Source: Isurus oxyrinchus (taxonomy: Eukaryota). Taken from it: a DNA stretch of 64,000 nucleotides. The number at the start of each line of letters is the position of its first letter. The stretch's first letter is position 1. Made by a program: the position numbers and the translations under genes. The stretch lies in assembly GCA_026770705.1 (NCBI GenBank), contig JANJGN010000052.1:2046001-2110000 (forward strand), in the 5' to 3' direction. Of the stretch, positions 15,772 to 60,057 are shown piece by piece. Below the pieces are notes generated by a model, which saw only the letters and a list, made by a program, of their open reading frames with translations, was not told the origin of the DNA and ran no database searches.

Positions 15772-17440
15772 CTAGAGAACACACAGAAAGAAATCATCAC
15801 TGACTCTCCGCTTTCAATCTCTCACTCTGGCTGAACAATCAAGCTTCATATCACTGCAACATTTGCTGGAATATTGACCCATCCACTGGGATTCAATGTG
15901 GAATGAATGTTTTCATTGTAAACACTCTAAGAGTGGACAATCGGAACTTTCCCCTTAGCGTGGAACATTGGTGAGAATGGATCATTGTGCTGTTGGACTC
16001 CCTGTCCAATGTTTCTCTCCATCGCTGTGTACAGGATTGTGCTGTAGAAAATTCTGGAAACGTTTAGTGCAGGGTAGAAATCCATCTCGGACGCGTGTGC
16101 GAATCGGGCAAGATCGAGATGGACTCCCCCATGGACTTACACCCCCCGCTTAATAAACAGTTCCAATCTTTACCCAGAGAGAGGGGAGAATGTGGAACTC
16201 GCTCCCACAGGGAGTGGTCGAGGTGAACAGTATCGATGTATTTAAGGGGCAGGAGGGTCGGTAACCAGAGGGACACAGATTGACGAACCGGAGGGGGAGA
16301 TGAGGAGAATTTGTTTTGACAGAGCGAGTTGTTGTGATCTGGAAGGTTCTGCCTGAAAGGGCAGTGGAAGCAGATTCAATAGGAACTTTCAAAAGGGAAA
16401 TTGGATAAACACTTGAAGGAGGAAGATGGGGGCAAAATGGAGTGGTGGTTAGTGGATCTGATGGGATAGAACATTGAAAGACCTGGCACAGGCACAATGG
16501 GCTGAATGGCCTCCTCCTGTGCTGTATCATTCTCCGCTTCCATGATCTCTCCCCCAGTCAGTAACCACTCCAGATCCCTCTTGAAGGTGACAGAGAAACA
16601 GCAACCACCACACCCACTGACAGCACATTCCCGAGGATCACTACTCTCTGGGAAAAGATGAACTCCCCAACATCCAGCCTATTCCTGCTTCCCGGAGAGT
16701 GTAAACCCTTCAGGGAGGCACTGAGGAAGTTTTCAATAAAATGACATCAAATCCACCGTTTGAGAAATAATTGAATTCCGATGAACTCACAGCTTGTGTA
16801 GCAAACTGGGAAGTGGAGTTGCTGGGAAAGCTGGGAAACACAAGGATTAAGGGCTACAATGCCACCACTGGTGGGAGGCTGTAACTACAGCGTGACGTTT
16901 ACATAGGCAGTCATCATTATAAACAGGGGCATTGCACATAATGGGAATTATGTGCACGGAAATAGTGAGAACATTATGTAAGCTTTTCACCAGCAGGAAT
17001 TCTCTTCCTAAACCTCTCCAACTCTCTCTTACTCTCAGATACACAAAGAAAATGACACAGAATCAGATAAGGAAGAATTAGGTTGGTGATTCGTCAAAGG
17101 GTTAGGTTTCAGGAAGCTTCTTAAAAGGAGAGAGAGAGTTGGAGACGCAGAGAGTATCTGTGATTGTCTCTATGCATCTGAGTGTCTGTAATAGTAATTT
17201 CCATATTCTTCCATAAATATGAATGGGAACACAAATCCCAGAATTCAGGCCAACTCTCCAGTGCAGTACTGAGGGAGGTCAGGTAACCCATGAGGGAGTG
17301 AGTGTTAGTGTTTGTGTGTGAGTGTGTCTTTGTGTGTGTTCATATATGTGTGTCTGCACGTGTCTATTTAGGTGTGTATGTTCGATGGTGTTTGTGTCGT
17401 GTTCGAATCTGAGAGAGATGTTGAAGTCTGTGTAACTCAC

Positions 17441-17592
17441 GTTCCACAGTGATGGTTATGAACCCATCCACTGCTCCATGTTCATTCTCTGCCACACACT
17501 GATAGTCTCCAGTGTCCCTGGAGGTAATGTGAGGAATCACCAACCACAGCTCATTGTTGGAACTTGTTCTGTTCATTTGGACATTCAGATGT
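17441..17592 (-). pseudogene. Siglec A 5'-truncated third Ig (C2) exon
   Basis: Matches only the 3' half of exon 30903-31184; first Cys and acceptor absent; in-frame TGA directly upstream; donor gtgagt kept. Confidence 0.85.
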
Positions 17593-17916
17593 CATGGCAG
17601 GAATCAAGAAGCCCGTTCACAGGATTACCAACAGAAAGTGAACAACAATTTATACTTAATGGGAAGAGAGTGCTGATTGGTTGGCAAGTGGTCTCTGATA
17701 GGTGGAGGTGTTGCCATGGAGAATGGTGTGTGCGAGATGTAAAGTTTAGACAGCTTGTCTCTTCATTCAGCAATAATCATATAAAGATCAATTAACTTCT
17801 ATCGACTTTGAAGCACTTAGAGAGGCCTTAGAATGTGGATACAGAGAACGGGCTGCACTGTCAGAGGGTCTGCGCTGAGGGAGTGCTGATGTAGCATGAA
17901 AGGTGTATGTAATTAC

Positions 17917-18213
17917 CTTGCACAGTTAGTACAAGGGTCCGCTCCGATGAAACAGATGGATATCTCACTCTGCAGCTGAGAGTGTGTCCGTGGTGTTTGA
18001 GTGATGGGATCAGGGTCAGAACAGAAGTATAGGTCAGAGTGACACCATGCTGAGTTACAGTGTTTGAGAGTGATCCAGGTACGTCAGTGGGAGTGTCCCA
18101 GGTTAAGACAGGTGCTGCTGTTCCATTTCACGTTGTGTTGAAGGTGCAGCTTACATCCACACGCTTTCCTGCAATAATTTCAGCAGGGAATATCATGGGT
18201 TTATCTGTGAAAT
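17917..18213 (-). CDS. Siglec A C2-set Ig domain 2 exon
   Basis: 297 nt, phase 1-1, ag/gt boundaries; DFTDKPMIFPAEIIAGKRVDVSCTFNTTCNG...HGHTLSCRVRY. Confidence 0.88.
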
Positions 18214-19525
18214 CTAACAGACAGAGAATGGATTCTTTTAGAGAAATATAACGTGAAGCATCAGTTCAAATAGAAATCACAGTCCCACACGAGAAAGCAC
18301 GTTTACAAGGATGATATCAGAACTGAGAGGTTACAATGATCATTAAAGAATTGTCTATTTTTACACTTGTTGAATCTCTGTCACTCAGATTAATACACTC
18401 TCACTCAGTGACCCTTGATTTGACCAGACTGGGTGAGGGTGGAGGAACAGCTCACAGCTCGGGGAGAACAGACTCAGCATTTGGAAAAGGATATGGAGAC
18501 ACTGGAGAGGGTGGTAAAAAGCTTCACAAGGATGATCTCAGCAATGTGAGGCTTTACCTATCAGGAGAGGCTGAACAGGCTGGGACTCTGTTCTCTTGAA
18601 CAGAGAAGGTTGAGGGGTGACCTCATTTGACCTTTGAAGTAATGAAAGGTTTTGATCGAGTAGACATGGAGAGAGTGTTTCCACTCCTCACAATGAACAA
18701 AACCAGAGGCTGACAATATAAGATCCTCACTAATAAATCCAATGGGGAATTCAGGAGAAAGTTCTTTACCCAGAGAGTGGGGAGAATGTGTGCTTCAAGA
18801 ATCACTTCATTGACTGTGAATTGATTTAGGATCGTCCTGATGTGAAAGGCGCTATGGAAATGCGAGACTTGGTTTTGTGTTTTGAAAGCAGGTTTCCAAG
18901 GATGAGATGGGAACTGAGAGGTAACAACAATCAGCAGCAACTTTCCTATTTTCAAACTTGGTGGGGAATGTGTCACTGAGCTGAATACACTTTCACTCCC
19001 AGACCCTTGAATTGCCAACACTGGGGTGTGGGTGATGGAGCAGCCCACAGCTCATGGAACCCTGGCTCATCGTTCTCTCAGAGATCTGGGTCACTGATCC
19101 CATTGCTCTCTGTGGGAGCTTCCTGTGAACAAACTCACTGCCACGTTAGACAGTGACTATACTTCAAGAATTTCTTCATTGTCTGTGAAGTGATTTGAAG
19201 TTTGCTGAGGTGGTGTAAGGCGCTATAGGAATGCACATCCTTCTTTTGTCAAATTGTTAGACTTTTAAAAAGCATTAGGTAGACTGATGGGAGTGGATAA
19301 CCTGATAACATTGATGGACACAGTCAATACATTTAATCATTGATATTAAAGTGAGTATTAGAGGTTGCTTTAGGACTGAACTGGAAGCTATCACCAGGTT
19401 ATTGAGAATCAGACAGTGTGTTATAATAAGCTGTGTTTTGTGTTAATATGTAAACGTCACAGTTTGTGTTATTTCCCATTGAGTGTTGAATGTGAATTGG
19501 TGAGTAATTATAACACAGCACTTAC

Positions 19526-19894
19526 CAGAAACGTGAAGCTGGGTTACAGGGTAATAGTTATGGCTCGGACCATTGTCAAATTCTATCCTGAAAAAATAAG
19601 GTCCTGCATCTTCCCGTCTGATGTTGTTTATAATCAGGGAACAGTCGCCATCTTTCAGGTCTCCAGACAGCCGGGTCCGATGGTGGAACCGTGGTAACTC
19701 GTGACTGTGATCCTTGGAGTGAAAGGCAATGGGAGCCCAGGGAATCTGTTCCTCATTATTAAACCAGACTCCACCTCGTTGTTGGTTTTCCAGACACGAT
19801 GGATAACTGTAATGACATGGAATCTGTACACACGAACCTTCCTGCGCTGTCACCTCTCGTGGAGTGTCACCTTTCCACTCTTGTGACAGTCCAA
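19526..19894 (-). CDS. Siglec A V-set sialic-acid-binding domain exon (essential Arg present)
   Basis: 369 nt, phase 1-1; EGSCVQIPC, GDCSLII and DAGPYFFRIE Siglec signatures. Confidence 0.92.
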
Positions 19895-20758
19895 CTGTGG
19901 AGAGAAATATCAATATTTAACCCTGGATCCTCATTGTCTAAGGGATTATTTCTGATCCAAGCCCCATATTGTTGTATTGTTGATTCCGATGCAGCATTGT
20001 AGACTGACTTGTCCCCAAGCTCAGCACTGACCCTACTCCAGCAGACACTGTGAAACACACTAACAAAGTGCCTCTAGCTTGAGCTCTGCCTGTGTCGAGA
20101 GAAAGACAAATATGCAAACTGAATATTGACACCTTTACACACGGACAGCTTTACCTTCCTTCTCTCTTTCAGTTATCTTGCTCCCTTATTGAAGTATCTA
20201 GCAAGGTGAGAATGGACAGGAAGTGTGACACTGAACAGCCTGTCTATTCTAGGAGCTGCTGTGTTGTCTTCATGGGAAATTCTGACTAAAATCAGCAAAA
20301 GACACTAATTTCAGGCCATTGCTGTCAGAGTCCTAGCCACAAGATAGACTTCATCCCCTGAATTTTGTGTCCAATTTTCCACTCAAGCTTTCACCTCCGC
20401 ACACACCCACCCCGACCCCAAATGTCACTCGCTGACCTACACTGGCTCCCAGTCCAACAACACCTCGATGTGATTATTTTCACACTTGATTTCCAATCCC
20501 TCCATCACTCCGCTCCACTCCCTGTCTCTGTAACCTACTCAAACCTACAACCCTCTGTGATCTCTGCACTCCCCCAATTCTGCTGTCAGACAGGGAGTCA
20601 GTGTATATCAGGGAGCACAGGGGTGATGGGTGAATGGGACTTGGTGTGAGTTTGTGCACTGGGTCACTGCTGAATTGGTTCCGAATCACAGCTCAATAAG
20701 AATGATCTTTTACGAAGACTATTAACCATAAATCTGTCTGAGCTGACGATGATATTAC

Positions 20759-20840
20759 CTTGGAGAAGTGACAGGAGGCAGTAATATTTCCCAATTATTG
20801 TCCACTCCCAGATATTCCTTTAGCTTCTGACTCTCAAACT
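20759..20840 (-). pseudogene. Siglec A leader exon with the start codon changed to ATA
   Basis: 82-nt paralog of 45927-46008; reads ATA ATT GGG AAA TAT TAC TGC CTC CTG TCA CTT CTC CAA G|gt; in-frame TAA upstream. Confidence 0.8.
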
Positions 20841-21248
20841 CTGAAAGAGAAAGGAGTTAATGAGACCTCACCTCTTGTCCGACAGCTCTCGAGAGATCAG
20901 AACTCCTTTTACATAATGTCTACACAGACTAATTTGGTTCTCTGTGGGATGACAGGTGCTCTGCAGAGAGTTAAAAAGCTTTAAAAAAATAAATCAATGA
21001 AGGACTTGCATTTCTATAGCACCTTTCACCACCTCAGGATGTCCCAAAGCTCATGTCCCTGCACTTCCATCATCCCTTGAGCTAGAAAGATGTTCTGTAC
21101 AACAGACTTGAGCCTCACACCCAGATCTCAAGAATCAGTAGAAATCTTTCAAAGGCATCAATCATTGGAATCTGTCTTTATAAAGTCACAACATCAACAA
21201 AGGACGGTGTTGGTGGTGGAAGTGAATTCCAATCGTTCCGTTACTTAC

Positions 21249-21400
21249 CCAGGACCTGTCCGACTGCTCGCCTGGGGAGGAACTGCCCACACGCTCTGCT
21301 TGGGCTGAATGACCTCTTCCTGTGCTGCTCCCTCTGTGTATTTAATGAGAAAGGGTTGATGTGTCACTGTGAGACAAAATGAGGAAGTTGCATCAAAGTG
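21249..21400 (-). promoter_or_regulatory. Siglec A promoter / non-coding exon 1
   Basis: PU.1-type AAATGAGGAAGT site, AT-rich box, TCATTC initiator-like motif, donor ctgg|gtaagt; paralog of 45375-45518. Confidence 0.6.
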
Positions 21401-27830: not shown

Positions 27831-27835
27831 TGATT

Positions 27836-30902: not shown

Positions 30903-31184
30903 ACACACCACAGAATCTCTCAATTAATTCTCTTGATATGATTAACGCTTCATCAATCAATATAATTGAGGGGAATTCTGCAGTGATAATCTGCTCTGTC
31001 GAGAGCTTCCCAGCTTCTAACCTGACGTGGCAACATCTTAATGTCCCAATGAACAGAACAAGTTCCAACAATGAGCTGTGGTTGGTGATTCCTCACGTTA
31101 CATCCAGGGACACTGGAGAATATCAGTGTGTGGCAGAGAATGAACATGGAGCAGTGGAGGGGTTCATAACCATCACTGTGGAAC
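30903..31184 (+). CDS. Siglec B intact third Ig (C2) exon, MAG domain-3-like
   Basis: 282 nt, phase 1-1; IIEGNSAVIICSVESFPASNLTW...DTGEYQCVAENEHG; sequons NLS, NAS, NLT, NRT. Confidence 0.88.
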
Positions 31185-31219
31185 GTGAGTTACACAGAAT
31201 TGAACGTTCTCTTGTTGTT

Positions 31220-32260
31220 AGCTCATGGGATGTGGGCATTGTTGACAAGACCAGAAATTATTGCCCATCTGTAACTGCCCCTTGAGAAGGTGGTGGTGAG
31301 CTGCCTTCTTTAACCACTACATTCCCTGTGGTGTAGGTACACCCTCAGTGCTGTTAGGGTGGGAGTTCCAGGATTTTGTCCCAGTGATGGTGAAAGAACG
31401 GCCAATATATTTCCAAGTCCCAGGGCAGACCACCACCTCAAGTTCGCTTCCAAATCACACACCTCACTGACTTGGAACTGTCTTGGTGGAAGAGGTTAAG
31501 AGTTTGGAAGGTGCTGTCGAAGGAGCCTTGGTGAGTTGCTGCAGTGCATCTTGTAGATGGTGCACACACTGCTGCCATTGTGTGCCAGTGGTGGAGGGTA
31601 TGAATGTTTATGCTGGTGGATGGGCTGTCGATCAAACAAGCTGCTCCTGGATGGTGTCGAGCTTCTTGAGTGTTGTTGGAGCTGCACTTATTCAGGCAAT
31701 TGGAGATTATTCCATCACACTCCTGACTTGTGCCTTGTCGATGGTGGACAGGCTTTGGGGGGTCAGGAGGTGAGTTACTCACCGCAGAGTTCCCAGCCTC
31801 TTACCCGCTCTTGTAGCCACATTATTTCCTGTTGCTGGGTTGTTGCCAGGGCCAATAGCCTTTGCTGTATCCAGTATCATCAGCTAATTGCTGATGTCAC
31901 GTGGAGTCAATCGAATTGTCTGAAAGCTGACATCTGTGATGCTGGGACCCTCTGGAGGAGGCCGAGATGGAGCATCCACTCAGCACTTCTGGCTGAACAT
32001 GGTTGCCAATGCTTCAGCCTTGTCATTTGCACTGATGTGCTGAGCTCCCCCATCATTAAGGATGGGGATATTTGTGGAACATCCTCCTCCTGTTAGATCT
32101 TTAATTGTCCATCACCATTCATGACTGGATGTGGCAGGACTGCAGAGCTTAGATCTGACCCGTTGGTTGTGGGATCGCTTTGCTCTGTCTATAGCATGTT
32201 GTTTCCGCTGTTTGGTGTGTATGTAGTCCTGTGTGTCACCTCAGCAGCTTGGCACCTCTG
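31220..32260 (-). mobile_element. CR1-clade LINE fragments
   Basis: Reverse-complement similarity to segments of 10397-12350. Confidence 0.8.
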
Positions 32261-32450
32261 TTATATGTGAATCCTCCTTATAGAAACCTGCATGTACATG
32301 GATATTATCAATAAATATTACATAGATAAATGTTATTTGTATAGACCTTTCATGCATAGACAATATCACTTCACAAGTTCAGAATTACTACATGTACATA
32401 GAGAACCATTCTCAAACTGTACCGGAGTCATTCATTGGCTGATTTTACAG

Positions 32451-32547
32451 GGCGAGATTCCAATGAATGGAAAGCAGGATTGCTTGGAGCTGGAATCTGT
32501 TTGAGTGTTGGACTGAGTGGATTCTTCATCTTCAAGTGTGTGAGAAA
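32451..32547 (+). CDS. Siglec B neutral TM exon (R)RDSNEWKAGLLGAGICLSVGLSGFFIFKCVR(K)
   Basis: Acceptor gattttacag, donor AA|gtaagt; phase 1 in, phase 2 out; uncharged helix followed by a basic stop-transfer. Confidence 0.78.
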
Positions 32548-33903: not shown

Positions 33904-34034
33904 GTGAGTCACACACCACAGGATCCCCAGCCTCTCAGCTGCTCCAGTAGCCTGGTTATTGATATGGCTGCTCCAGTCCTGTATCTGCAATGTTTTATAC
34001 AGTCACTCCCAAACCCAACCAAACTCACACCCAA

Positions 34035-38200: not shown

Positions 38201-39045
38201 TCCAATGATGCTCCTAATGTACTCGAGCCTGGTACACAGGAACTGGGGAAGGCCAATTCAGCCCCTTTAGCCTTTTACACAGGAACAGGAGGAGGCCCAC
38301 TCAGCCCCTCGAGCCTATAACACAGGATCAGGAGGAGGCCCATTCAGCCCAAGCAGAGCGTGTGGGCAGTTCCTCTCCAGGCGAGCAGTCGGACAGGTCC
38401 TGGGTAAGTAACGGATCGATTGGAAATCACGGGGGGAGTTCTGAGGGCTCCTAATCCATTGTCCTGTCTTCTAAATCAGCACCTTAATACAGTGCGGCAC
38501 TCCCTCAGTACTGATCCTCCAACATTGCAGCACTCCCTGATTAATGTCCCTCTGACAGTGCAGCACTCCCTCAGTACTGACCCTCCAACAGTGCAGCACT
38601 CCCTGATTAATGACCCTCTGACAGTGCAGCACTCACTCAGTACTGACCCTCCAAAAGTGGAGATCTCCCTCAGTACTGACCTTACAATAGTGCAACACTC
38701 GCTCAGTAATGACCATCCGACAGTGCAGCACTTGCTCAGTACTGACACTGGGGAGTTTCAGTCTACTCTGTGGGGCAGACGTCCCCTGAATGGGGTCTTG
38801 AACCCCACAACATTCTGACCCCCTGAATTTGGCTGTGAAACCCACTGACCCACAGGAGAAATTCCTGGTCAATGACTGTCCACCTGTGAGCAGAAATATC
38901 ATCACAGGGTCAGGACACAAAGGGTTAACAGTTCACCAACATCTCAAAACATGAGCTGCTCTGTCACTTTGAACCAACTTCCTCATTTTGTCTCACAGAG
39001 ACACATCAGCCCTTTCTAATTAAATACACAGAGGGAGCAGCCTAA

Positions 39046-39258
39046 ATGGTCTATAGCCTTTCACTCCGAGGGTCACAGTCACAGGGATCAAAGATTCCGC
39101 CATCGTACCCGGCTGTCTGGAGACCTGAAAGATGGCGACTGTTCCCTGATTATAAACAACATCAGACGGGAAGATGCAGGACCTTATTTTTTTCAGAATA
39201 GAATTTGACAGCAGTAATAGTTACAGCTACTATCCTGTAACCCAGCTTCACGTTTCTG
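39046..39258 (+). pseudogene. Siglec C 5'-truncated, frameshifted V-set exon
   Basis: Starts mid-domain (WSIAFHSEG), fused to promoter sequence; T7 instead of T6 before the Arg codon; donor intact. Confidence 0.88.
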
Positions 39259-40116: not shown

Positions 40117-40413
40117 ATTTCACAGATAAACCCACGATATTCCCTGCTGAAATTATTGCAGGAAAGCGTGTGGATGTAAGCTGCACCTTCAACGCAACGT
40201 GCAATGGAACAGCAGCACCTGTCTTAACCTGGGACACTCCCACTGACGTACCTGGATCAGTCTCAAACACTGTAACTCAGCATGGTGTCACTCTGACCTA
40301 TACTTCTGTTCTGACCCTGATCCCATCACTCAAACACCACGGACACAATCTCAGCTGCAGAGTGAGATATCCATCTGTTTCATCGGAGCGGACCCTCGTA
40401 CTAACTGTGCAAG
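40117..40413 (+). CDS. Siglec C C2-set domain 2 exon (open, but within a probable pseudogene)
   Basis: 297 nt, phase 1-1, ag/gt boundaries. Confidence 0.75.
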
Positions 40414-40738: not shown

Positions 40739-40888
40739 GATCTTAACGTCCCAATGATTAGAACAAGTTCCAACAATGAGCTGTGGTTGGTGATTCCTCA
40801 CGTTACATCCAGGGACACTGGACACTATCAATGTGTTCAGAGAATGAACATGGAGCAGTGGAGGGGTTCATAACCATCACTGTGGAAC
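40739..40888 (+). pseudogene. Siglec C truncated and frameshifted third Ig exon
   Basis: Same 5' truncation as 17441-17592, plus a 1-nt deletion after the QCV codons. Confidence 0.85.
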
Positions 40889-42562: not shown

Positions 42563-42702
42563 ACAGTGGAGGAGAGATTCTGCACGTGATCCTGATCCTG
42601 GGAATACGAGCTGTGATATTCCTTGTGGCTGTGGTTATCACTATCGCTGGAGTCTGTGTCTGGGAGAGACAAACAGTGAAAGGAAGTCGACAGACTGTTT
42701 GA
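42563..42702 (+). CDS. Siglec C terminal Arg-TM exon with short tail
   Basis: Apparently identical to 15632-15771 on the opposite strand. Confidence 0.75.
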
Positions 42703-45374: not shown

Positions 45375-45518
45375 ACCCACTTCCTCATTTTGTCTCACAG
45401 TGACACATCCACCCTTTCTAATTAAACACACAGAGGGAGCAGCACAGGAAGAGGTCATTCAGCTCAAGCAGAGCATGTGGGCAGTTCCTCTCCAGACGAG
45501 CAGTCGGACGGGTCCTGG
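45375..45518 (+). promoter_or_regulatory. Siglec D promoter / non-coding exon 1
   Basis: cacttcctcatttt (PU.1/Spi motif in reverse), attaaa box, tcattc, donor ctgg|gtaagt. Confidence 0.62.
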
Positions 45519-45968
45519 GTAAGTAACGGAACGATTGGAATTCACATCCATGACCAACACCGTCCTTTGTTGATGTTGTGACTTTATAAAGACAGATTCC
45601 AATGATTCATGCATTTGAAAGATTTCTACTGATTATTGAGATCAGGGTGTGAGGCTCAAGTCTGTTGTACAGAACATCTTTCTAGCTCAAGGGATGAGGG
45701 AATTGCAGAGACATGAGCTTTGGGACGTCTTGAGGTGGTGAAAGGTGCAATAGAAATGCAAATCCTTCAATGTTTTTCTTTCTTAAAGCCTTGTAACTCT
45801 CTGCAGAGTACCTATCATCCCACAGAGAATTAAATTAGTCTGTCAAGACATTGTCCAAAAGCAGTTCTGATCTCTTGAGAGCTGTCGGACAAGAGGTGAG
45901 GTCTATTTAACTCCTTTCTCTTTCAGAGTTTGAGAGTCAGAAGCTAATGAAATATCTGGGAGTGGACA

Positions 45969-46008
45969 ATGATCGGGAAATCTTACTTCCTCCTGTCACT
46001 TCTCCAAG
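45969..46008 (+). CDS. Siglec D leader exon MIGKSYFLLSLLQ (exon 45927-46008)
   Basis: acaATG context; phase-1 donor CAAG|gtaat; joining to TT GGA CTA TCA CAA completes the signal peptide. Confidence 0.8.
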
Positions 46009-47389
46009 GTAATAACATCGTCAGCTTGGACAGATTTATGGTTAATAGTCTTTGTAAAAGATCATTCTTATTGAGCTGTGATTGGGAAACGATTCAGCAG
46101 TGAGCCAGTGTACAAACACACACCAAGTCCCATTCACCCATCACCCCTGTGCTCACTGATATTCACTGACTCCATGTCTGACAGCAGAATTGGAGGAGAG
46201 CAGAGATCTCAGAGGGTTTTAGGGTTGGAGGAGGTTACACAGATAGAGAGTGTAGAGGGGGGATGGTGTGGTAAGAAATCGATGATGAGAATTTGAAATT
46301 TGAGTCATTGCTGTACTGGGAGTCAGTGTAGGTCAGTGAGTGACAGGGAAGCGATCGGCTGAATAGAGAATCAGGGATAAAAACTGGGGGTTGAGGTCTA
46401 TCCCGATGCTAGGACACGGATAACAATGCCCTGAAATTTTGTGTCTTTTGCTGATTTTGTCAGAATTTCCCATGAAGACAACACAGCAGCTCCTAGAATA
46501 GACAGGCTGTTCAGTGTCACACTTCCTGTCCATTCTCACCTTGCGAGATACTTCAATAAGGGAGCAAGATAACTGAAAGAGAGAAGGAAGGTAAAGCTGT
46601 CTGTGTGTAAAACTATCAAATATTCTGAGTTATCATGATTGTCTCTGACCTGCTGCAGAGTTTAAATTTCACAGAATCTGAGCACTTTGCAGCTCAGAGA
46701 GAGACCATTGACTCACTGCCTGAAAGGGCGGTGGAAGCAGATTCAACAGGAACTTTCAGAAGGGGAACTAGATAAATACTTGAAGGTGACATTTTGCAGG
46801 GCTGTGGAGGAGAGAGCAGAGGTGAGAGTGGGACTAATTGGACAGATCTTTCAAAGGCCCAGCACAGGCTGGATGGACCAAATGGCTTCCTTCTGTTCCA
46901 GATCATTCTACAATCTGACAAATTAAGCCCCACATCAATAACTCTTCAGGCTCCCGCTGCAGGGATGGATCTTTGACAAGGACAGAGAACAAGAGGTTTC
47001 TGGTATCATTTTCATAATTCTTGACAATTACATAAATGTATAGATCTGTTGAATATTTAAGTCTCTAAAGCATAGAGGTAATCTGCTGTTACGCCCAGGT
47101 CTTGTGGTGGGAACCTTGTCTGGAGGTGTCTTTAATTGCTCACATTGATCTGTGGGATTGTCATTCTTTGATGTTGTCCCTGGTTTCAATTGGCATTTTA
47201 CCCTTGATGCAACTGGGGAGGCTTTAAACTAACATGGCAGGGGATGGGATCCCAAAAAGAGGTTGACCAAAGGGAGATGCACAGCCAAAATTAGAAGAGA
47301 GAGCAAATGAACCTGGAAGGCAGAGAAATTATTGGCAGAAGATAGAATGGCAAAGTTGGATTGCAATTATTTTAATGCAAGGAGTCTGA

Positions 47390-50300
47390 CAGACTTGCAT
47401 TCTCCTGCAGGTGTGATGTTCCAGCTCCCTTGAAATTGCCAATATTGTTGAAACTTTCTGCATATTTCAATGTTATGTCATGAACTGAGGTGATGGAGTA
47501 GTTTCTGAGACTGGGACAGACATAAATCCTTTGGCTTTCGGCTGGTCCGGACAATCCTGGCAGTGGGTGGGGCCAGCAAATCCCACCCCTTGGGACATTT
47601 TCAGTTTATTTGATGTGCCCAGAGAGATCAATAAAGACCTCAATCCACAATTTATTGGCAAGCCACGTCAGGATATGTGTGAGAGGTGGAATATCGATCA
47701 CCGCTCCTCGTCTCGCCATGCACATCATCGCCATTTCCTGGTTTGTCAGTCACCACATGTCTATGTTCCTGATGGGATAGGGGATGGTCATTCTTATTGC
47801 TTGAAGGTTCCCCGTTGTGTAGGGTTAGTTTGGATCAGCGCACAGCTCTTTGTAGTGGCATCAGCCTTTGCTCTAGTGCCCTGCCGCTGTCAATGGCCCT
47901 TTCTGCCACAAGCCTTGCAGGAACTGGATAAATACTTGAAGGGGACATTTTGCAGGGCTGTGGAGGAGAGAGCAGAGGTTAGAGTGGGACTAACTGGACA
48001 GATCTTTCAAAGGCCCAGCACAGGCTCGATGGGCCAAATGGCTTCCTTCTGTTCCGAATCATTCTACAATCCGATAAATTAAGTCCCTTTTCAATAACTC
48101 TTCAGGCTCCTGCTGCAGGAATGGATCTTTGAGAAGGGCAGGGAACAAGCGGTTTCTCATATCATGTTCATGTTTATTGGCAATTACATAAGTGCATGGA
48201 ACTGTTGAATATTTGAGTCTCTAAAGTGTGGATTTAACCTTCTGGTACACCCAGATCTTGTGCTGGTTACCTTGTCTGGAGGTGTCTTTAACTGCTCACC
48301 GTGATCTGTGGGATTGTCACCCTTGGATGCTGATCCTGATTTCATGTGGGATCTGCTCCTCGATGGAATAGGAGCGGGAATGGATCTGAGTTATCCTCGG
48401 TTCCACCTCACCGCTGTGCCCTTGTGTGTTTGACTCCATAGCCCCTTGGTTCTGAACAAATCCTTGTCACCTCGGCTGGTGATCATGAACCTTCTGTGGG
48501 ATCCTGGATGTGAACTTGTCCCAACTGTAAACTTGGCAACTCTGCACCTCCATTTTTATCATGAACATTCCTTATCTTCTCTTGTAGTTTTAAAAGTTGC
48601 TCTCTGGTTTCTGAGAGAGTAGAATGGGTAAGAGTAGCGAAATTGGTCACTACTGGCACACGAAACATGATCTCTGTCAGTGATGGAATAAGGTGAGGTG
48701 ATGGTGTAGTGGTATTGTTGCTGGACGAGTAATTCAGAGACCCAGGGTAATATCCTGAGAATATGGGTTCAAATCCGGCCATAATAGATGATGGAATTTG
48801 AATTTAATAAGAATATGAAATTCAAAGTCTAGTGATGACCACAAAACCATTGTTAGAAATCCCACCTGGCTCACCAGTGCCCTTTAGGGAACAAAATTAT
48901 CTGGCAGACATGTGACTCCAGACTCCACGTCAATGTGGTTATCTCTTACATTAGGGATGGGTAATAAATCCTGGCCTGGCCAGTGACTCCCACATCCCAT
49001 GAATGAATTTAACAAAGTTGCAGTTGTAGGTGTTGATCTCAGATGTAACATTGCAATGTGTGGATCTTGCTTGGTCTGTCTACATTTGAGAATTAGGGAT
49101 TTCACTGTGTGAATCATTCATTCAGCTAGGCTGTTAGATCTGGGGTAATGAGGAGAAGAAGTAGTGTGATTGATATTCCAGATTATCTGTAATCATGTCC
49201 CTAGGTTCACCAAAGAAACTGAAAATAGTGCTTAGAGTGTGTGCACCAGTTGTGCTCGGTGTGTTGTGCTTTTTTTGAATAACGGGATATCTGGTAAAGC
49301 TGTTGACAATGACGATGAAGTCAGTGACATGGACATGAAAGGATTCAGATTTTGGACTAAGAATGGGCAGGAATTTCCTGTGGAATCAGTGGTTCTTTGA
49401 CAAGCCTCTTGACAAGCCTTGTACTTCCCTACAAACGACTTCAAGGTCATTGTTCATACCCGGCCAGTGACTGTATCTCTTGTGAGTCTCCTTGTCTGAT
49501 CTGTGTCCATGTGTGAGGGATGAAGTTGTTGAAGAATATAGGATCACAAATGTTCCGGTATGATGCCCTGCCTGCCTTTAAAAATGGTTCCCTGGGAGAT
49601 GCCTCGCTTATGCCGATCAGGTCAAATTGAATCAGGCCACGCTTCAATGATATTTCCACAGTTCCTGTAGAATTTTTCACTGTTCCCTCTTGTAGCTGCT
49701 GTCATTTCTGTTGTGCTAAATGTACTGGATCAATTGACAGACTTGCATTCTCCTGCAGGTGTAATGTTGCAGCTACCTTGAAACTACCAATACTGTTGAA
49801 ACTTTCTGCATATTTCAATGTTATGGCATGAACTGAGGTGATGGGGTAGTTTCTGAGGTTGACCCATGTGATGTCTGACAAATTCCATGGATAGTCACTA
49901 GTGTGAGGTCACCGCATGCGGGTAGATTGTAATTGCTCAGCGTTTAGTCTCCACAATGTAGAACATCTGTGAGACCCAGGAGGATTGATTGTACTTGCAC
50001 TCCAGGACTATGGATTCTGCACATGGAGTTGGTGAAGTGTTGTACACAGCAATAGGTTTCCCCATGGACTTCCATATCCTTGGATACATGTCTTTGAAAA
50101 TTTGCTGGAGTGGGCTGGGGGAGGGGAATGTTGGCACTTGCCCCTGTGTCAATCTTGGCCAATAAAGGGGAGGTAGCAACTTTCTCAGGGCAGATAATTG
50201 GAATCTTGGCCAATAGTGCAGGTGATGTGACGGCATCTGTTCTCCATGAGATTGATGGTGTAAAAGGTGTGAAATTGTTCAACAATTGCACAATACGTTG

Positions 50301-52034
50301 AGCACAAGTGCTGCACAAACTCTAGGCTGGGGTTTTCTGGCCCAGTCATGGTAGGACCTGCCATGGGAGATTGGGACAAATATAAATCCATTCGCTTTCG
50401 GCCGGTCTGGACAATCCTGGCAGTGGGTGGGGCCAGAAAATCCCACTGCTATGGGACATTTTCAGTTTATTTGATGTGCTGAGAGATATCATGAAGGACA
50501 ACAATCCACAATTTATTGGCAAGCCACGTCAGGATATGTGTGAGAGGTGGAATATCGATCACCGCTCCTCGTCTCATCGTGCACATCATTGCCATTTCCT
50601 GGTTTGTCAGTCACCGCATGTATATGTTCCTGATGGGATAGCGGATGGTCATTCTTATTGCTTGAAGTTTCCCCGCTGTGTAGGGTTATTTTGGATCAGC
50701 ACACGGCTCTTTGTAGCTGCATCAGCCTTTGCTCTAGTGCCCTGCCGCTGTCAATGGCCCTTTCTGCCACAAGCCTTGCAGGATTGCTGGAAAGCTGGGC
50801 ATTTCCTTGGTGCCTGCAGAAGGCCACACCTTCCACACGTCTCACTAGGTTTGGATGTTCTAGTGAGTGTGTCAACAATTGATGTTGTACAGAGGACCTG
50901 TAATCTTCGTTGACCTGTGAGGATCCATTCGTATTTATGTCTATCCTTGAGTAGCTCTTCAATGCTATAGGTTTTGGTCTTATCTAGCAGAGCTTTCTGG
51001 AAGGCTTCCATGGGAGTGGATGCGATCGCCAACTCAACAACTCTGTCTGCAGACTCTGTGTTTGAAATCACAGTGCGTACCCTTTTCTCTACATCGGCTG
51101 ATGAAGTGGTCTATGGATTGTGTAGGCTGATGAAATGACATAAACTCTAGTTGATGAATATGGAGTTTCACCTGATTCTGAACCTGTCTTCCAATGTCGT
51201 CCATATCTATTGGGGATCCTTTCACTCTTCTGCTGTTAATCCTGACGTGTTCGGCCTGTGTAGACCTTCATTCCCAATCGTGAGGTGAATTTTTATGGCT
51301 TGCTCGTCTGGTTCAGTCACACCTGAATCAGGAAACCAGAGTTCTGTACGCTGTTTAAACATCCTGAATTCAGATAGTCGGTCAGCTACATCCCAGTTCA
51401 AACTGGGGAATTTCGTGGACATTCTGACAATATTCCTTTGACCTTCCTTCTCCTACAGGACCTGGGATGAGTGTCGCTTTAGCCCCTTTCGTACGCTTTT
51501 CCGAAGCTCCGCCCACGAAGACGGGTTGCGGCAGGAACACACCACGGAGTAATGGAGTCTTTGTTTTTTATTCAATTTGCTGTTCAGCAATCTCGAAGCC
51601 GCCCGTTATAATCACTAACTTCTCTGGGCTGATTTTTATAATGGTTTTTGTGTGTTTGACTCTCCCTTGCTCACTATCGATCCAGCCCACACCCTGGTCA
51701 CTCGCCTTCCCTGACTGAGCTAACCCGCTGCTGGTCCTGGCGATACACACTGTCCCACTCATTGACCTACAGGCCGTGTGCTGTAATCTCACCACGAGGG
51801 ATCTGTCTGCTCCCCAGCTCTTTACTTGAGCTCTTTCCCGTCACTGTGTCTTCAAAGGTTTCCTGAGCAGTCAGTACACTGCGATTTCAACCCTCTCTGA
51901 TGCTGTGTCTCTGTTGTGGTCTGACCAAAGCGTCGAGGGTTGTCTCATGCCATGTAGCTCGATCTAAGGCTGTTCACCACATCATACCTGTACTGAATCT
52001 TGCTGCCAGAATGTTTGGCCACCGCTGATCACCA
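47390..52034 (-). mobile_element. Degenerate, internally rearranged Ty3/Gypsy element in the gene D intron
   Basis: Gag (FKQRTELWF), Zn knuckle (CGRCG...CKACGRKGH), protease (IDTGAS), integrase remnants; TGG primer-binding site next to the LTR. Confidence 0.85.
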
Positions 52035-53544
52035 TGTTGTGTTTTTATAATGATATAAAGGCACCAGCCACTGATACAGAATTGGGTAAATACATTGTGC
52101 GTTCATTTATTTAGAATAGGGACATGAGAACAGATATACAAGGATAGAAAGCTGGGAGACACCTGCAGCCAAACTGTGTGAGCTGTGTTCTGCTCACAGG
52201 CCAAAGTGAAACTTGGACTGGATGGTGTTATCATCCCAGCTGATGTTACTACTGGGCAAGTCAGATCCCAGGGTGGAACTCAGCTTGATAGGTCCTAACT
52301 TTTATTTTTTATTTAGGAATGTGGAGTGCGGCTACTGAACAGAGTCACAGGAATCATCTGATGACCTTCTAACAAAAGAATAAAACATTTATTAAACTAG
52401 GAAAGACTGATTATATTACATTACTCCTTCACCCAGACCTATACATTTACAGATTCATAAGTAGAATACAAGTTACAATAACTATCTTATACTCTCATGT
52501 TCACACTAAGTACACAGTTCATGCAAACCAATAGACGACCTGGCGTCAGGGACACCACATTCTGTATCCAAGTGATAGACCCCAATTGGAACAAATGCTA
52601 TGGGTTTCAGCTCAACTGACTCCAGACACTTGTTTCACCATGAGGCAACTGGTCTTCCAAAACTGTATCTTTCACATGAGAGTTTCCAATCTCTACTCGT
52701 CAAGTGCTCTCTTTGGAATCTTCTCTAACATGACACTTTCACTCAGACACCTTCCACAAGGGTCCACTTCCATGATTTCAAACTCTCCTTCCCATGTTCC
52801 TGCCCCCTGGATCGCCACATGCATTCAGCCTTCCTTCTACGCGTTGTCTCTCCAATGCTCAGTCATGCCAATGGAACACCATGGCTTCACATGGTCATAG
52901 TAAGAAGACATCAACATTTAGCTGTCTCCTATGATCTTCTGGCTTCTAATAAGCCTTTTTTGCTTTAGGTCTGTGTCCTTTTGCTTTTTCTCTTTTAGCT
53001 TGGATCCCTCCTCTGCTCCTCAATCTTATCTCGACTTAACAGGACCTTTTTCAGATTCCTGATCTTCTTTGGAGTAGAAGGTCTTCTTGGCTCTTTCTCC
53101 TGTTCCACTCGATGGTTTTGGCTTCTTCTTTACTTTGGGACTGACTATCTGTCCCGCTCCTTTGCTGCTTCTCCTGGCAACTCCTTTCAACCAAACTGAA
53201 AGCACATTTCTGTTTTTCTCTGTCTCTATGGGTCCGTCCCTCTGGATCACTGTTGCTTAGCAACAGCACAGTTTCTTACACCTTGTGTTTGTATTGACTT
53301 TCCTTCAAGAGACATCAAACCCCATTAGATTGCTAAATGAAAATGAAACCAAAACTGAAGTTTCCCCCTTTCTTAACACACAAATACAGAAAACAAACTA
53401 AACTTGAACTTAAAGATAGACCTTATCCCTAACACACACAAATACACATAGAACTTACTTAAGCTATCCCCAGTTCTAAAATCACATGACACACTTCCCC
53501 TCGAGTGATGTCATGCTGCTGTCCCTGAAAGGCATATTACAACA
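52035..53544 (-). mobile_element. 5' LTR of the Gypsy element, apparently carrying a nested insertion (~52245-53480)
   Basis: TGTTG...CAACA termini at 53544 and 52035; abuts the primer-binding site. Confidence 0.55.
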
Positions 53545-54873
53545 GTGTTGTCACTTGGCAGGTGATGTGTGCCAGGCAGACCAAGTCCATGAGAGAAAGG
53601 TGGTCACACTATCATAATGATTTTGCAATTTGTATTTATTATGAGATGTGTGCACTGAATTCAGAAGCAATAATTACACCAAGACCTTTAGAGATTTGAA
53701 AATTAAATTAATATTCTTGCTCTCAAAATAAAAGATTTCAAGCACATACATAACTCTACAATTACCACTATAATAATTCTTAAAATTCCAAATTAACCTG
53801 ACTCCCAGTTACACTCCCTTTAAGGCAACAGACTAAAAATAGATGTTAGATTTAAAACAACTCAGCAAGTTAACACAATACAATAGCAATACCCTGCACA
53901 GAGGAATTCCAAGTGGCTTTTCCCCAACTTCAGTTCTGTTGGATAGCAGGCTTGTGCACAAATGCTTGAGGTTTCATTAAGACTATATCACACACTCGTG
54001 TTAGATCTTACATGGCATTCTGACACATAGCCTTTCATTCTCCCTGATAGATATATATTTGTCTCTTTGTAACATGAAAATTCTATTGTTCCAAATGTTT
54101 TTGAAACTGTCTCTTCCTCATAACAAATTCTTTCGTGGTGCCCATATTGCCAGGAGCCTTTGAGAAAAATAAGCACATTCCTTAGTCTTGCTTATCTGGC
54201 TAGTTGTAAACAAGCTAAGATTCCTTTGAAATCCAACAACCCCTTCATTGAAATAAAAATGCAAATTCTCTTCATACCTTCCATGCTAAGCAGCATCCAT
54301 GTTTCCTCAATAGCATGTCAAGCACCTAGCTCCTTTTGATCATTTTAAACTTCCAATCTAATTAACTCCAAATGTACTTAAATCACATGCAGACCCATCA
54401 TGCGTACCCCCATAAACCTACTTCACAATATACTATAAAATATTATGAAAATTATTATACTTACATCACAATAGGAACCACTGCCTTAGACACTGAGGAT
54501 CTAGGACAGCTAGGCCAATTACTGATTCATGATGGTGATAATGGGGGAATTCTGAAGGCTCCAAATCCATTGTCCTACATTGTAAATCAGCAGTGAACTC
54601 ACTTCAATCAGTGCGTCTTGTAGACACTGTGTTGGGTGGCAGACTGACTTCACTAAATAGGTTCCTGTGGGCCATGAGCCAATGTAGAATGAACTTGTCC
54701 ACTCCTGTGTCCAGAATTCTCTTCGATCTGTGGTAAAACCTTGGGGCATTCATTGTGTGACCTGTGGATTATCCAGACTGCAGCCACTGTGCCCCAGTGA
54801 TGGAGGGGGTGGATATTGAGTACAGTGGATTGAGAAAACATTCAGAGTTAAATATTGATATTTCTCTCCGTAG

Positions 54874-55248
54874 TTGGACTATCACAAGTGTGGAAAGTCA
54901 ACACTCCAGGAGAGGTGACAGCGCAGGAAGGTTCGTGTGTACAGATTCCATGTAATTACAGTTATCCATCATATTTAGTAGCGAGATCACCAGTCGGATT
55001 CTGGTATATGAGAAGGAATTGGGAAACATGGAATGAACGGTCTATAGCCTTTCACTCCAAGAATCACAATCGCAAGTTAATAAGGTTCCACCATCGGACC
55101 CGGCTGTCTGGAGACCTGAAAGATGGTGACTGTTCCCTGATTATAAACAATGTCAGACGGGAAGATGCAGGATATTATTTATTCAGCCTAGAATTTGACA
55201 ACAGGAATAGATACAACGACCGTCCTGAAACCCAGCTTCACGTTTCTG
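54874..55248 (+). CDS. Siglec D first V-set exon; essential Arg replaced by Ser
   Basis: 375 nt, phase 1-1, open; DAGYYLFSLE with AGC at 55185-55187. Confidence 0.9.
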
Positions 55249-55449
55249 GTAAGTGCTGTGTTATAATTACTCAACAATTCACATTCAACACTCAATGGGA
55301 AATAATAGTGTTTGATTTGCTTGTTTTTTGGCCGTGTTAACCAGCGTCACTATTTTTAATGATTTGTCTATTTCTACTCCCAGATCCATGAGCTTATTGT
55401 GTGTGATTGAATCCACATCATAGCTGTAACGTAAACCGAGCTGAGGGGT

Positions 55450-57100
55450 GATGACACCTCCCCCCTGAGTGAAGTGTCTCCTCCCCACTACACCTTCCAC
55501 CCCTCACACTGTCCGTGTAAACCCCCGTCCCATCTCCAGCCTCTCTTTCCCCTGCAAAGTCCTTGAACGTGTTTCCATCTCCCGAATCCGTTCCCATCTT
55601 TCCCGGAACTCCATGTTTGAATCCCTCCAATCAGGTTCCCACCCCAGCCACTGTGCTGAAACAGCTCTTATCAAGGTCACAAATGGCATCCTGTGTGACT
55701 GTGACAAAGGTCAACTTTCCCTCCTCGTCCTTCTCGATCTGTCTGCAGCCTTTGACATGCTCGACCACACCATCCTCCTCCAACACCTCTCCACTGTTGT
55801 CCAGCTGGGTGGGACTGCTCTCCCCTGGCTCCATTCTTATCCATCTCATCGTAGCCAGAGAATCACTTGCAATGGCTTTGCAGCATCATCTGAACACTGT
55901 TAGTTTTCACCTGTCCACTGAGGATCCCCAGCTCTACCTCACCACCACCTCTCTCGACTCCTCCACTGCTGCTAAATTATCAGGCTGCTTATCCGACATC
56001 CAGTACTGGATGGGCAGAAATTCCCTCCAATTAAATATTGGAAAGACTGAAGCCATTGTCTTCATTCCCCACTCCAAACTCTGTTCCCTCGCTACCAACT
56101 CCATTCCTCTCCCTGGCAGCTCTCTGAGATTGAAGCCAATCTGTTCACAGCTTTGTTGTCCCATTTGATCCTGAGATGAGCTTCCGGCCTCACATCTGCG
56201 CCCTCACTAACACCGTCTATTTCCACCTCCGTAACATCGCACGACATCACCCTGTCTCAGCTCATCTGCTGCTGAAACCCTCATCCACGCCTTCATTACC
56301 TCCAGACTCGACTGTTCCAACAACACGCTCTACACTCCATAAACTTGAGGCCATCCAAAACTGCTGACCACGTCCTTACTCACACCAAGTCCCGTTCCCT
56401 CATCACCCGCTCTGCTCGATGACCGAGACTGGCTCCTGGTCAAGCAAAGTCTCAATGTCACAATTTTCATCTTTGTTTCCTCATTATCCCTGTAATCTCC
56501 TCATCCTCCTCCAGTACCTACAACCATCCCATTCTCTGTAACCTCTTCAAGCCTCCACCGCTTCCCTATATCTGTAAAATCATCCTGCCCAACAAACCTA
56601 CCAATCTCTGCAACCTCCTCCAGCCACTACAAACCTCTCTAGCTCTGCAAACTCCTCCATACCCTACACTCTCCCAATCTCTCTTCAATTTTCCAGCCTC
56701 TACAACCCTCCCTATCTCTGTAACTCCTCCAATCACTACAACCCTCCCTATCTCTGTAACCTCCTCCAGCCCCTCCAACCCTCTGAGGTCTCTGCTCTCC
56801 TCCAATTCCAGCCTCTTGACCATCCCCCGGTCCCATCACTCCAACATCGGCGGCCGTGCCTTCAGCTGCCTGGGGCCCGAGCTCTGTAATACCCTCCCTC
56901 AACCCCTCTCCGTCCCTCTCTCTCTCTCTCTCTATCCATTTCATCCCTCTTTGAAGATTCTCCATAACACCGTCCTCTTCTGGCCAGCTGTCGCTAATAT
57001 CTCCACATGTGTCTGGGTGACATACTTTGTTTTATGACGCTCCTGTGTAGCACCTTGGGGTGATTTGTCATGTTCAAGTTGTTGTGTAAATATAAGTTGT
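55450..57100 (+). mobile_element. L2 LINE ORF2 3' fragment
   Basis: RPISSLSFPCKVLE, ETALIKVTN, LLVLLDLSAAFD, LQLNIGKTE motifs; degenerate. Confidence 0.9.
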
Positions 57101-57649
57101 TGCCCTTTGACCCTCGACCCCAGCTTGAGTCTTATTTTTGAGGGAATGTACAACCTCCTTAGATTTCTGACCAAAATGTCATTTGATTATTTTTATTGAG
57201 TGAATGCCAAGTCCCGATACCGAGTGAGAGCCTCCTCATTTGCTGAGTTTAAGGTGATGAGTCAGCCCCTTAGTCCGTAGAGGGGATTCTCCTCGGTAAT
57301 GTGCAGCCTTGTTTGTGTCTCTCCACAAGCGCATGAGGGGTTTGTACAGAGGCTGCAGCGCTGGAGGGGGTCTGCACAGGTGTCCTGACCTGTCCTGAGC
57401 CGGTTTTAGCAAGGACCACTCTGGCCTTGGCAGCTGAAAGCCAGCCATTGGACAGACGGGGCCTGTCACAAGGAGCCTGTTAGTCACACCCCCCCGTGTC
57501 TCCTGTGCTCAGATCCAGACCATGTTGGCTGGTGGATCTGGCTCAGGAAGGGTCCTCCCCATGGGACACCCAGATGAAAGGTGGGTCGAGCAGGTCAGTC
57601 ACTTGCATGTTTATTCTGCAGCTTTAATATTTCAAGAAGGTAAGAATGT

Positions 57650-58415
57650 AGGAACATAAGAAATAGGGACAGGAGCAGGCCATTCGGCCCCCCGAGCCTA
57701 CTCTCGCAGATCTGGTTGTGGCCTTAACTCCATTTTCCTGCCTGTCCCCCAAACCCTTGACTCCCTTGTCGATCAAAAACCTGCCTCACTCAGCCTTGAG
57801 TCTATTCAATGGCCCAGCCTCCACTGCTCTCTGGGGAAGAGAATTCCACAGGCTAGCGCCCCTCTGAGAGAGGAAATTCCTCCTCATCTCAGTCTTAAAT
57901 GGGAGAGTCCTCATTCCGAAACTGTGCTCCCTGGTTCTAGATTCCCCCACGAGGGGCAAACATCCTCCCAGCATCCACCCTGTCAAGCCCCCTCGGAATC
58001 GGATATGTTTCAATAAGGTCACCCCTCATTCTTCTAAACTCCAATGGATACAGGCCCAACCTGCTCACCATTTCCTCACAGGACAAACCCTTTAATCCCA
58101 GGAATCAGCCCAGTGAACCTCCTCTGAACTGCCTCCAATGCAGAGTCTATCCCTCCCTAAGTAAGGAGACCAGAACTGTACACACTGCTCCTGATACAAT
58201 CTCACCCTGTGCAGCTGTTGCAAGACTTCCCTCCTTTTATACTCCATCCCTTTGCAATAAAGGCCAACATTCCACTTGCCTTCCTCATTCCGTGGTGTTC
58301 CTGAATGCTGACTTTCTGTGATTCATGTACAAGGACACCCAGATCCCTCTGTCCTGCATTCTGCAGCCTGTCTCCATTTAAATAATATTCTGTTTTTCTA
58401 TTCATCCTGCCAAAA
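57650..58415 (-). mobile_element. CR1 LINE 3' fragment
   Basis: QRDLGVLVHESQK; MRRNFLSQRGASLWNSLPQRAVEA. Confidence 0.88.
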
Positions 58416-58533
58416 TAATTTGTTGCCATTCTCCTCAGTATTAACCATCCCCCCAATTCAGCCTCATCTGTAAAGTTGAGTCTAGTGGATCCACAAACCA
58501 TCCAGAGTTAAATATTGAGATTTCTCTCCCCAG

Positions 58534-58902
58534 TTGAACCCTCACAAGAGTGGAAAGGTGACACTCCACGAGAGGTGACAGCGCAGGAAGGTTCGTGTGT
58601 ACAGATTCCTTGTCATTACAGTTATCCATCGTGTCTGGAAAACCAACCGCGAGGTGGAGTCTGGTTTAATAATGAGAAACAGATTCCCTGGGCTCCTATT
58701 GCCTTTCACTCCAAGGATCACAGTCACGAGTTACCACGGTTCCGCCATCGGACCCGGCTGTCTGGAGACCTGAAAGATGGCGACTGTTCCCTGATTATAA
58801 ACAACATCAGACGGGAAGATGCAGGACCTTATTTTTTCAGAATAGAATTTGACAGCAGTAATAGTTACAACTACTATCCTGTAACCCAGCTTCACGTTTC
58901 TG
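58534..58902 (+). CDS. Siglec D second V-set exon (essential Arg present)
   Basis: 369 nt, phase 1-1; DAGPYFFRIE with AGA at 58839-58841. Confidence 0.92.
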
Positions 58903-59373
58903 GTAAGTGCTGTGTTATAATTACTCAACAATTCACATTCAACACTCAATGGGAAATAACACAAACTGTGACATTTACATATTAACACAAAACACAGCTT
59001 ATTATAACACACTGTCTGATTCTCAATAACCTGGTGATAGCTTCCAGTTCAGTCCTAAAGCAACGTCTAATACTCACTTTAATATCAATGATGAAAAGCA
59101 TTAACTGTATTATCAGGTTACCACTCCCATCAATCTCTCCTGTCCTGTTTAAAAGTCTGACGTATCGATAAAAGAAAGATGTGCATTTCTGCAGCGCAAT
59201 TTACCACCTCAGGAGGATCCAAATCCCTTCACAGCCAATGAAATTATTCCTGAATTGTAGTCACAGATGTAAAACACAGCAGGCAGTTTGTGCACAGCAA
59301 GATCCAACAAACCACAATGTAATAAATCACCCAGATCACTGAGGAAATGAGAAGCCAGTGAACTCAAACCTCT

Positions 59374-59411
59374 GGTCTGATGAAGAGTCATACGGACTCG
59401 AAACGTTAACC
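59374..59411 (+). ncRNA. Minimal hammerhead ribozyme motif (duplicate of 39730-39767)
   Basis: Identical core, stem II and palindromic stem III. Confidence 0.6.
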
Positions 59412-59760
59412 CTGTCTTCCTCTCCACTGATACTGTCAGACCTGCTGAGTCTTTCCAGCAATTTTTGTTTTTGTTTCAGATTTCCAGCATCCACAGTATT
59501 CTGCTTTTAACTCCAATCTCTGGTCTCAGCCTCTTCTCTCATCCAGTATTCTCAATTCACATGTCTCGGAGTGAACGTGTATTAAGCTGAGAGACAGAAA
59601 CACTACTGCCAAAGAGCAAGAAAATCTTTCCTGATCATTGTAACCTCTCAGTTCTCATATCATCCTTGTAAAAGTGCTTTCTCTTGTGGGACTGTGGTTT
59701 CTATCTGAACTGATGCTTCACATTATATTTCTCTAAAAGGATCCATTCTCTGTCTGTTAG

Positions 59761-60057
59761 ATTTCACAGATAAACCCACGATATTCCCTGCTGAAATTAT
59801 TGCAGGAAAGCGTGTGGATGTAAGCTGCACCTTCAACACAACGTGCAATGGAACAGCTGCACCTGTCTTAACCTGGGACACTCCCACTGACGTACCTGGA
59901 TCAGTCTCAAACACTGTAACTCAGCATGGTGTCACTCTGACCTATACTTCTGTTCTGACCCTGACCCCATCACTCAAACACCACGGACACACTCTCTGCT
60001 GCAGAGTGAGATATCCATCTGTTTCATCGGAGCGGACCCTTGTACTAACTGTACAAG
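59761..60057 (+). CDS. Siglec D C2-set domain exon
   Basis: 297 nt, phase 1-1; ...HGHTLCCRVRY...VQ|gtaagt. Confidence 0.9.

Follow-up and report, generated by a model that had tools for sequence, protein, structure and literature searches.

Results

The Arg-anchor exon and the gene that carries it

The window analysed here is a 64,000-nucleotide stretch of contig JANJGN010000052.1 from the shark Isurus oxyrinchus. Positions 42563..42702 of its forward strand hold the terminal exon of a gene that we call copy B, encoding a linker, a transmembrane helix with an Arg, a 12-residue cytoplasmic tail without Tyr, and a stop codon. The acceptor AG at 42561-2 is preceded by a polypyrimidine tract, and phase 1 reading from 42565 gives SGGE-ILHVILILGIRAVIFLVAVVITIAGVCVW-ERQTVKGSRQTV-stop. 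The membrane Arg is encoded by CGA at 42607..42609 (+), a codon kept, and its Arg with it, in 211 of the 216 Arg-type anchors of the genome; 18 uncharged residues follow it, then ERQTVKGSRQTV and the stop. Kyte-Doolittle hydropathy averages 2.95 over the best 21-residue stretch. A preliminary description of this DNA had proposed a transmembrane exon with an Arg, and these features bear it out; its remark that the open reading frame track shows the exon in a wrong frame agrees with the ATG-started frame that crosses the exon in another phase. Searches with the anchor peptide give no match in Pfam and none in PDB at E values up to 10.

A GT..AG joint from the end of the C2 exon (~40413) to 42563 is found in all four probable-RNA runs, as are V to C2 joints, the runs representing one sample of one study whose RNA status is a guess, with contigs that are not attributable to single copies. 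Because the contigs carry both the V to C2 and the C2 to anchor joints, the family is seen to use this acceptor and frame, and splicing in the frame originally proposed is thereby upheld.

Copy B is a pseudogene within a very large paired Siglec-like cluster, and the exon, itself intact, is its last. That the gene carrying it (39.0-42.7 kb) is broken had been missed in the preliminary description. At 38999..39258 (+), the 5' half of a 5'UTR exon runs directly (~39041/39051) into the 3' half of a Siglec V exon. This fusion removes the leader exon together with 160 bases at the start of V, and the V remnant has an extra T near 39187 that causes a +1 frameshift. On a map of the window plus 20 kb leftward, no leader exon for copy B is present on the plus strand between the end of the preceding gene and copy B, and the gene lacks both the signal peptide and the whole in-frame V exon expected of a functional Siglec gene. 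An open C2-set exon of 297 nt, bounded by AG..GT, follows at 40117..40413 (+; Pfam C2-set_2, E 3e-9), and beyond it lies the 3' remnant of a second C2 exon (40740..40888, +), which has no acceptor and a 1-base frameshift and is skipped by the spliced contigs.

Copy B is very probably non-functional. It might still encode a C2-plus-anchor protein that lacks a leader, or supply sequence to other copies by exchange: the frameshift puts an internal ATG (near 39174) in frame, splicing in silico yields a frame that stays open from there across C2 and anchor, the C2 exon, anchor and splice sites are undamaged, and the same UTR/V fusion occurs in 3 of 91 other fetched loci. We regard such a role as very improbable, since the signal peptide and ligand-binding V domain are missing, out-of-frame ATGs lie upstream of the one near 39174, and the frameshift is common by descent to three of the four fusion copies. 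Contigs placed on the fusion, moreover, run into a normal 5'UTR exon or a normal V exon (loose ends); among the pieces listed no RNA contig bridges the fusion, which is not proof of silence. The extra T at 39187 is absent from only about half of the depth in run X3, and in X2 none was scored as lacking it. Position 42727 is T in copy B and in 2 of the 66 copies of its contig, and C in the RNA contigs.

Other copies in and beside the window

A second Arg-anchor gene, copy A, is inverted (15632..21387, minus strand). Its anchor exon is 140/140 identical, its start codon is ATA, and its C2 exon contains a stop. A further fragment, made up of an orphan C2 exon and a decayed neutral-anchor exon, lies at 30903..32547 (+). 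Copy C, the inhibitory-type partner, starts 2.7 kb downstream of the 42563-42702 exon; its 5'UTR exon through C2 fall within the window (45380..60057, +), and the gene continues past the right edge (locus L070). Its plus-strand exons are an open leader (45929-46008), V1 (54874-55248), in which the essential Arg has become Ser, V2 (58534-58902), in which that Arg is kept, and C2 (59761-60057). Right of the window there are two further C2 exons (three in total), a neutral anchor, and tails with tyrosine motifs. The two cytoplasmic exons are tandemly duplicated (L070 5154-6950 and 8140-10000), with FLYANP (ITIM lost) and TEYAQI in the first tail and LLYANI in the second, and choice between these tails could tune inhibition. 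Introns of copy C (window 46700-54800 and 62450-63800) hold what we take to be retroelement fragments, with zinc-knuckle-like and reverse-transcriptase-like open reading frames. Long tandem repeats with 24-base, 33-base and other units, at window positions 33908-35158 and 26581-29230, create spurious long open reading frames.

Siglec-like identity of the family

The V exon at 58534-58902 matches Siglec-5, -8, -7, CD33 and MAG with E values of 5e-16 to 1e-13 and with the Arg of its YFFR motif aligned, and matches Siglec-15 more weakly (E 2e-7). Siglec-5/7/8/CD33 and MAG score alike against it. Pfam assigns V-set and Ig_CD22 to the family V exon, and the essential Arg is retained in 87 of 93 open V exons. 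Thus at the family level a Siglec-type V-set domain with the essential Arg is combined with a C2-set exon, as in Siglecs. Of the 116 homologs, the 115 that are named come from sharks and rays, most are annotated as Siglec-, CD33-, CD22- or MAG-like, and the closest come from lamniform sharks, at 90-95% identity. Judged by sequence, the anchor exon closes a Siglec-like gene of sharks. Automatic NCBI models from Carcharodon, Cetorhinus, Scyliorhinus and other elasmobranchs, named sialic acid-binding Ig-like lectin 12/13/14 or CD33-like, have V domains up to 95% identical, and three of them (P0024, P0027, P0034) end in the same anchor exon as copy B. These Siglec-like names are automatic, and we found no paper on the pairing, number or adaptor of the genes.

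Size, architecture and pairing of the cluster

A 30-base motif of the Arg anchor has 216 exact matches genome-wide (reversed control, 0) and a 23-base motif of the neutral anchor has 193, 55 of them on the window's contig; both counts may include some doubling through unplaced contigs. Loci were read over about 10 kb upstream of 91 other Arg-type copies, which together with the window's own two brings the total to 93 of 216, and over 10 kb upstream of 20 of the 193 neutral anchors. All 66 Arg-type copies on the 4.2-Mb contig were scored. Five are complete from leader to anchor, and 17 show no lesion, with a leader beyond the fetched stretch (together 22 of 66 lesion-free); 42 have lesions, and two are open with the Arg changed to Gln. 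The C2 remnant was not scored as a lesion because contigs skip it. Among the copies scored as lesioned, L112, L114, L115, L122 and L136 have an open leader and C2 with no V in the stretch, and could yield a V-less surface protein (leader-C2-anchor).

Arg-type genes have 1-4 V exons and 0-3 C2 exons. At four inhibitory-type loci (L162, L167, L171, L173), 7-11 tandem C2 exons or remnants lie within 10 kb, so that stalk length is widely variable. The 93 open V exons encode 74 proteins that are 60-100% alike and vary mostly in what we take to be the stretch between strands B and C' and the FG region. V exons do not sort by type: mean identity is 0.885 between activating and activating, 0.871 between inhibitory and inhibitory, and 0.874 across types (92 and 14 exons), the closest pairs between types are up to 99.5% identical, and one clade for all inhibitory V exons is rejected for the same set (p-AU 3e-109, 92 + 14). 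The C2 exons of the two types are intermixed as well. Tails with tyrosine motifs were read in the sequence of just two genes, copy C and the one to the left of the window. For the remaining neutral-anchor genes we infer ITIM/ITSM-type tails from the shared anchor and from database relatives; of 116 such relatives, 56 show an ITIM or ITSM in a crude scan, a few of whose calls are false.

One type in this cluster has a basic membrane residue and a short tail without Tyr motifs, and its linked twin has a near-identical ectodomain and an ITIM/ITSM tail. By analogy, this is the paired-receptor pattern of Siglec-5/14 and Siglec-11/16, in which the two types would be kept alike by exchange. According to the available portions of the primate literature (PMC6288428, PMC13358205, PMC4042635), both of those pairs are kept alike by sequence exchange, and human populations commonly carry null alleles of activating Siglecs (PMC6288428). 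The shark genes resemble the primate pairs in a V-set domain with the essential Arg followed by C2-set domains, in near-identical ectodomains placed on either an ITIM/ITSM tail or a short tail with a basic membrane residue, and in sequence exchange with frequent null activating copies. They differ in number (two pairs in primates, in those portions, against roughly 200 + 200 anchors in the shark), in the exon content of single genes (1-4 V exons in tandem, 0-11 C2 exons or remnants), and in an adaptor that is likely FcR-gamma, not DAP12. The likeness is stated without a claim of orthology.

Spread and conservation of the Arg anchor

The Arg-anchor exon is present in 16 of 127 stored proteins, from three shark orders (Carcharodon, Scyliorhinus, Mustelus, Chiloscyllium, Hemiscyllium, Rhincodon). 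The Arg is found in 16 of 16, nine of which were recovered by likeness to an anchor query, which favours Arg, and seven by a V search free of that bias. Exactly 18 uncharged residues separate the Arg from the inner edge in all 15 proteins in which the exon is terminal. Searches with the anchor region recovered three Carcharodon proteins by word index and ten proteins by HMMER, P0123 being left out. Among the 127 stored proteins, none with the exon came from rays, Heptranchias, Pristiophorus or Heterodontus. The same exon is likewise the last one in CD22-like models of Chiloscyllium and Hemiscyllium, and in two models that are not Siglecs: P0124, annotated as SLAM family member 9-like, and P0122, which matches CEA, CEACAM1 and CD2 in the PDB. 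In the Isurus genome, a SLAM/CEACAM-type gene on a different, 118-Mb contig (C21:89443000-89447640) ends in a homologous Arg-anchor exon (89.4475 Mb) that is 67% alike over 434 bases including the upstream intron; this gene has stops in its leader and V exons.

Within the genome, no selection on the anchor exon was detected by diversity or pN/pS. Diversity is 0.012 in the exon and 0.011-0.022 in the flanking intron, the same in broken and unbroken copies, and pN/pS stands at 1.0 for C2 and, among only 15 distinct sequences, at 2.5 for the anchor. The Arg codon is changed in 2 of 66 copies, and two other CpG sites of the exon in 2 and 7 of 66. The near-identity of the genomic anchor copies reflects recent copying.

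Discussion

Probable adaptor coupling

The exon at 42563-42702 is the membrane anchor of a broken copy whose intact relatives are probably activating receptors, signalling through the Arg and an ITAM adaptor that is most likely FcR-gamma. That intact copies couple to some adaptor is probable. The identity of the partner is less firm, the balance inclining towards FcR-gamma (or CD3-zeta) rather than DAP12/DAP10. The genome contains an FcR-gamma-like membrane exon with Asp (L084/L085; E 2e-10 to FcR-gamma) and a CD3-zeta-like one, also with Asp (L083). Counted from the inner edge of the membrane, 18 uncharged residues follow the receptor Arg vs 15 after the FcR-gamma Asp, and the Arg thus lies three residues further out than the Asp, which is the Fc-alpha-RI offset. 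FcR-gamma is favoured because these membrane exons with Asp are present and because the three-residue offset matches Fc-alpha-RI. When the anchor peptide was modelled in a complex with the FcR-gamma-like exon in two copies, the score was 0.15 against a mark of 0.34, and the model counts neither for nor against coupling. Loci L084 and L085, on the small contigs C1723 and C1648, are paralogs or haplotypes. The ITAM exons of the FcR-gamma-like gene were matched neither by an ITAM profile, which shows no absence, nor by a motif scan of the adjacent sequence.

LILRA, GPVI, NKp46 and OSCAR are FcR-gamma-coupled receptors with an Arg in the outer membrane helix and a short tail. The shark receptors differ in having an ectodomain of Siglec type, not of LRC C2 type, and an Arg that is maybe slightly deeper, and their coupling is a prediction. 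The likeness extends to Fc-alpha-RI, a type I protein with the Arg in the outer part of its membrane helix and a short tail (PMC1440944, in the portion available).

Siglec-14 pairs with DAP12 through an Arg, and the intact shark receptors could likewise be activating through DAP12 or DAP10, as are Siglec-14, -15 and -16. DAP12 is used by all activating mammalian Siglecs in the accounts available (PMC6288428, PMC13358205, PMC4042635), and the shark Arg, counted from the Val after the His, is residue 8 of the longest hydrophobic stretch, where DAP12 partners have position 9 and Fc-alpha-RI position 3. Its depth lies between residue 5 and residue 8, according to the point at which the helix begins, and relatives have polar residues at -5 to -7, which suggests that the helix may begin later. 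We consider DAP12 or DAP10 coupling unlikely, since FcR-gamma-like exons are present in the genome and DAP12 is reported to prefer Lys in type I proteins, the change K9R having cut KIR assembly to 15% (PMC1440944, in part). A genome-wide DAP10 profile search gave nine weak matches (best E 0.4), with no DAP10/DAP12 helix in the five of nine that were translated; exons this short are easily missed. Siglec-15 is itself an activating Siglec with a basic membrane residue that is present in fish; it differs in using Lys with DAP10/12 and, in the available part of the study, in having no large paired cluster described (PMC7226832).

The Arg could also be a mere boundary or snorkelling residue, the short-tailed genes then acting as decoys that do not signal, or as largely neutral passengers that a segmental repeat carries along as it amplifies itself. 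An exon no more conserved than its own intron within the genome is what such passengers would show, as is a contig on which two thirds of the copies are broken. This reading is nevertheless quite improbable: neither the Arg nor its register changes between three shark orders or between unrelated ectodomains, although the residues around it do, the neutral-anchor twins lack a residue of this kind, and spliced transcripts exist. The adaptor-coupled activating receptor of the preliminary description finds good support at the family level, in view of the Siglec-like ectodomain, short Tyr-free tail, conserved Arg and intermixed ITIM/ITSM-type twins, and none for copy B, with no leader exon, only the 3' half of a V exon, and a +1 frameshift.

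Under FcR-gamma coupling, the V domain of an intact receptor would bind sialylated or microbial ligands, the membrane Arg would pair with two adaptor Asp residues, and the adaptor ITAM would recruit Syk. Such activating receptors may counter microbes that take advantage of the inhibitory twins. The birth and death of copies, together with sequence exchange, would produce both the matched ectodomains and the many dead copies, copy B included.

The C-terminal tail

The preliminary description was headed by a class I PDZ motif and itself doubted PDZ binding; the doubt was right and the motif does not stand. The tail ends in Q-T-V, with Gln at -2. Class I PDZ ligands need S/T-X-hydrophobic, according to the available part of PMC2891790, and Gln at -2 falls outside classes I, II and III of that account. 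The last residue, Val, is hydrophobic and satisfies that part of the rule, Val is terminal in 59+3 of 65 scored copies on the same contig, and the three-class scheme is acknowledged to be imperfect (PMC2891790, likewise in part). Binding of the tail to a PDZ scaffold is nonetheless extremely improbable, since 0 of 15 relatives with a terminal exon have a class I end and their ends are variable (QTV, QPV, RTV, KGS, KGN, KEN, TNS, QNS). The RQTV duplication also noted earlier is real as peptide; in the DNA the two stretches agree at 8 of 12 bases, with a synonymous difference in each of the four codons. Because relatives stop earlier (KGS, KGN, RTV, TNS), the second RQTV may be a read-through extension.

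Wider significance

In a literature search with most subscription journals outside its coverage, so that a prior description is possible, we found no paper on paired, expanded or CD33-related shark Siglecs or on shark adaptors. In the whale shark genome paper, the available part mentions Siglecs a single time, as a family of jawed vertebrates, and a teleost study, in the portion available, reports fish genomes without inhibitory CD33-related Siglecs (PMC7226832). We put forward tentatively, as a possibility rather than an expectation, that galeomorph sharks have several hundred paired Siglec-like receptors, diversified in the V loops and by exon shuffling, whose activating half works via FcR-gamma through one portable Arg-anchor exon that, along with its intron, was passed by copying between Siglec, CD22-like and SLAM/CEACAM-type genes. 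If this is true, paired ITIM/ITAM Siglec immunity is as old as jawed vertebrates or was invented twice with different adaptors. Paired Siglecs have been described for primates; about 400 shark anchors, half of activating type and half of inhibitory type, would place the design at the base of jawed vertebrates and on a scale of hundreds. An anchor exon common to unrelated Ig families offers a direct test of how activating receptors arise, and because it is common to them, one adaptor assay would answer for several families. Two otherwise open copies with Gln in place of the membrane Arg, L108 and L133, are natural controls for adaptor coupling.
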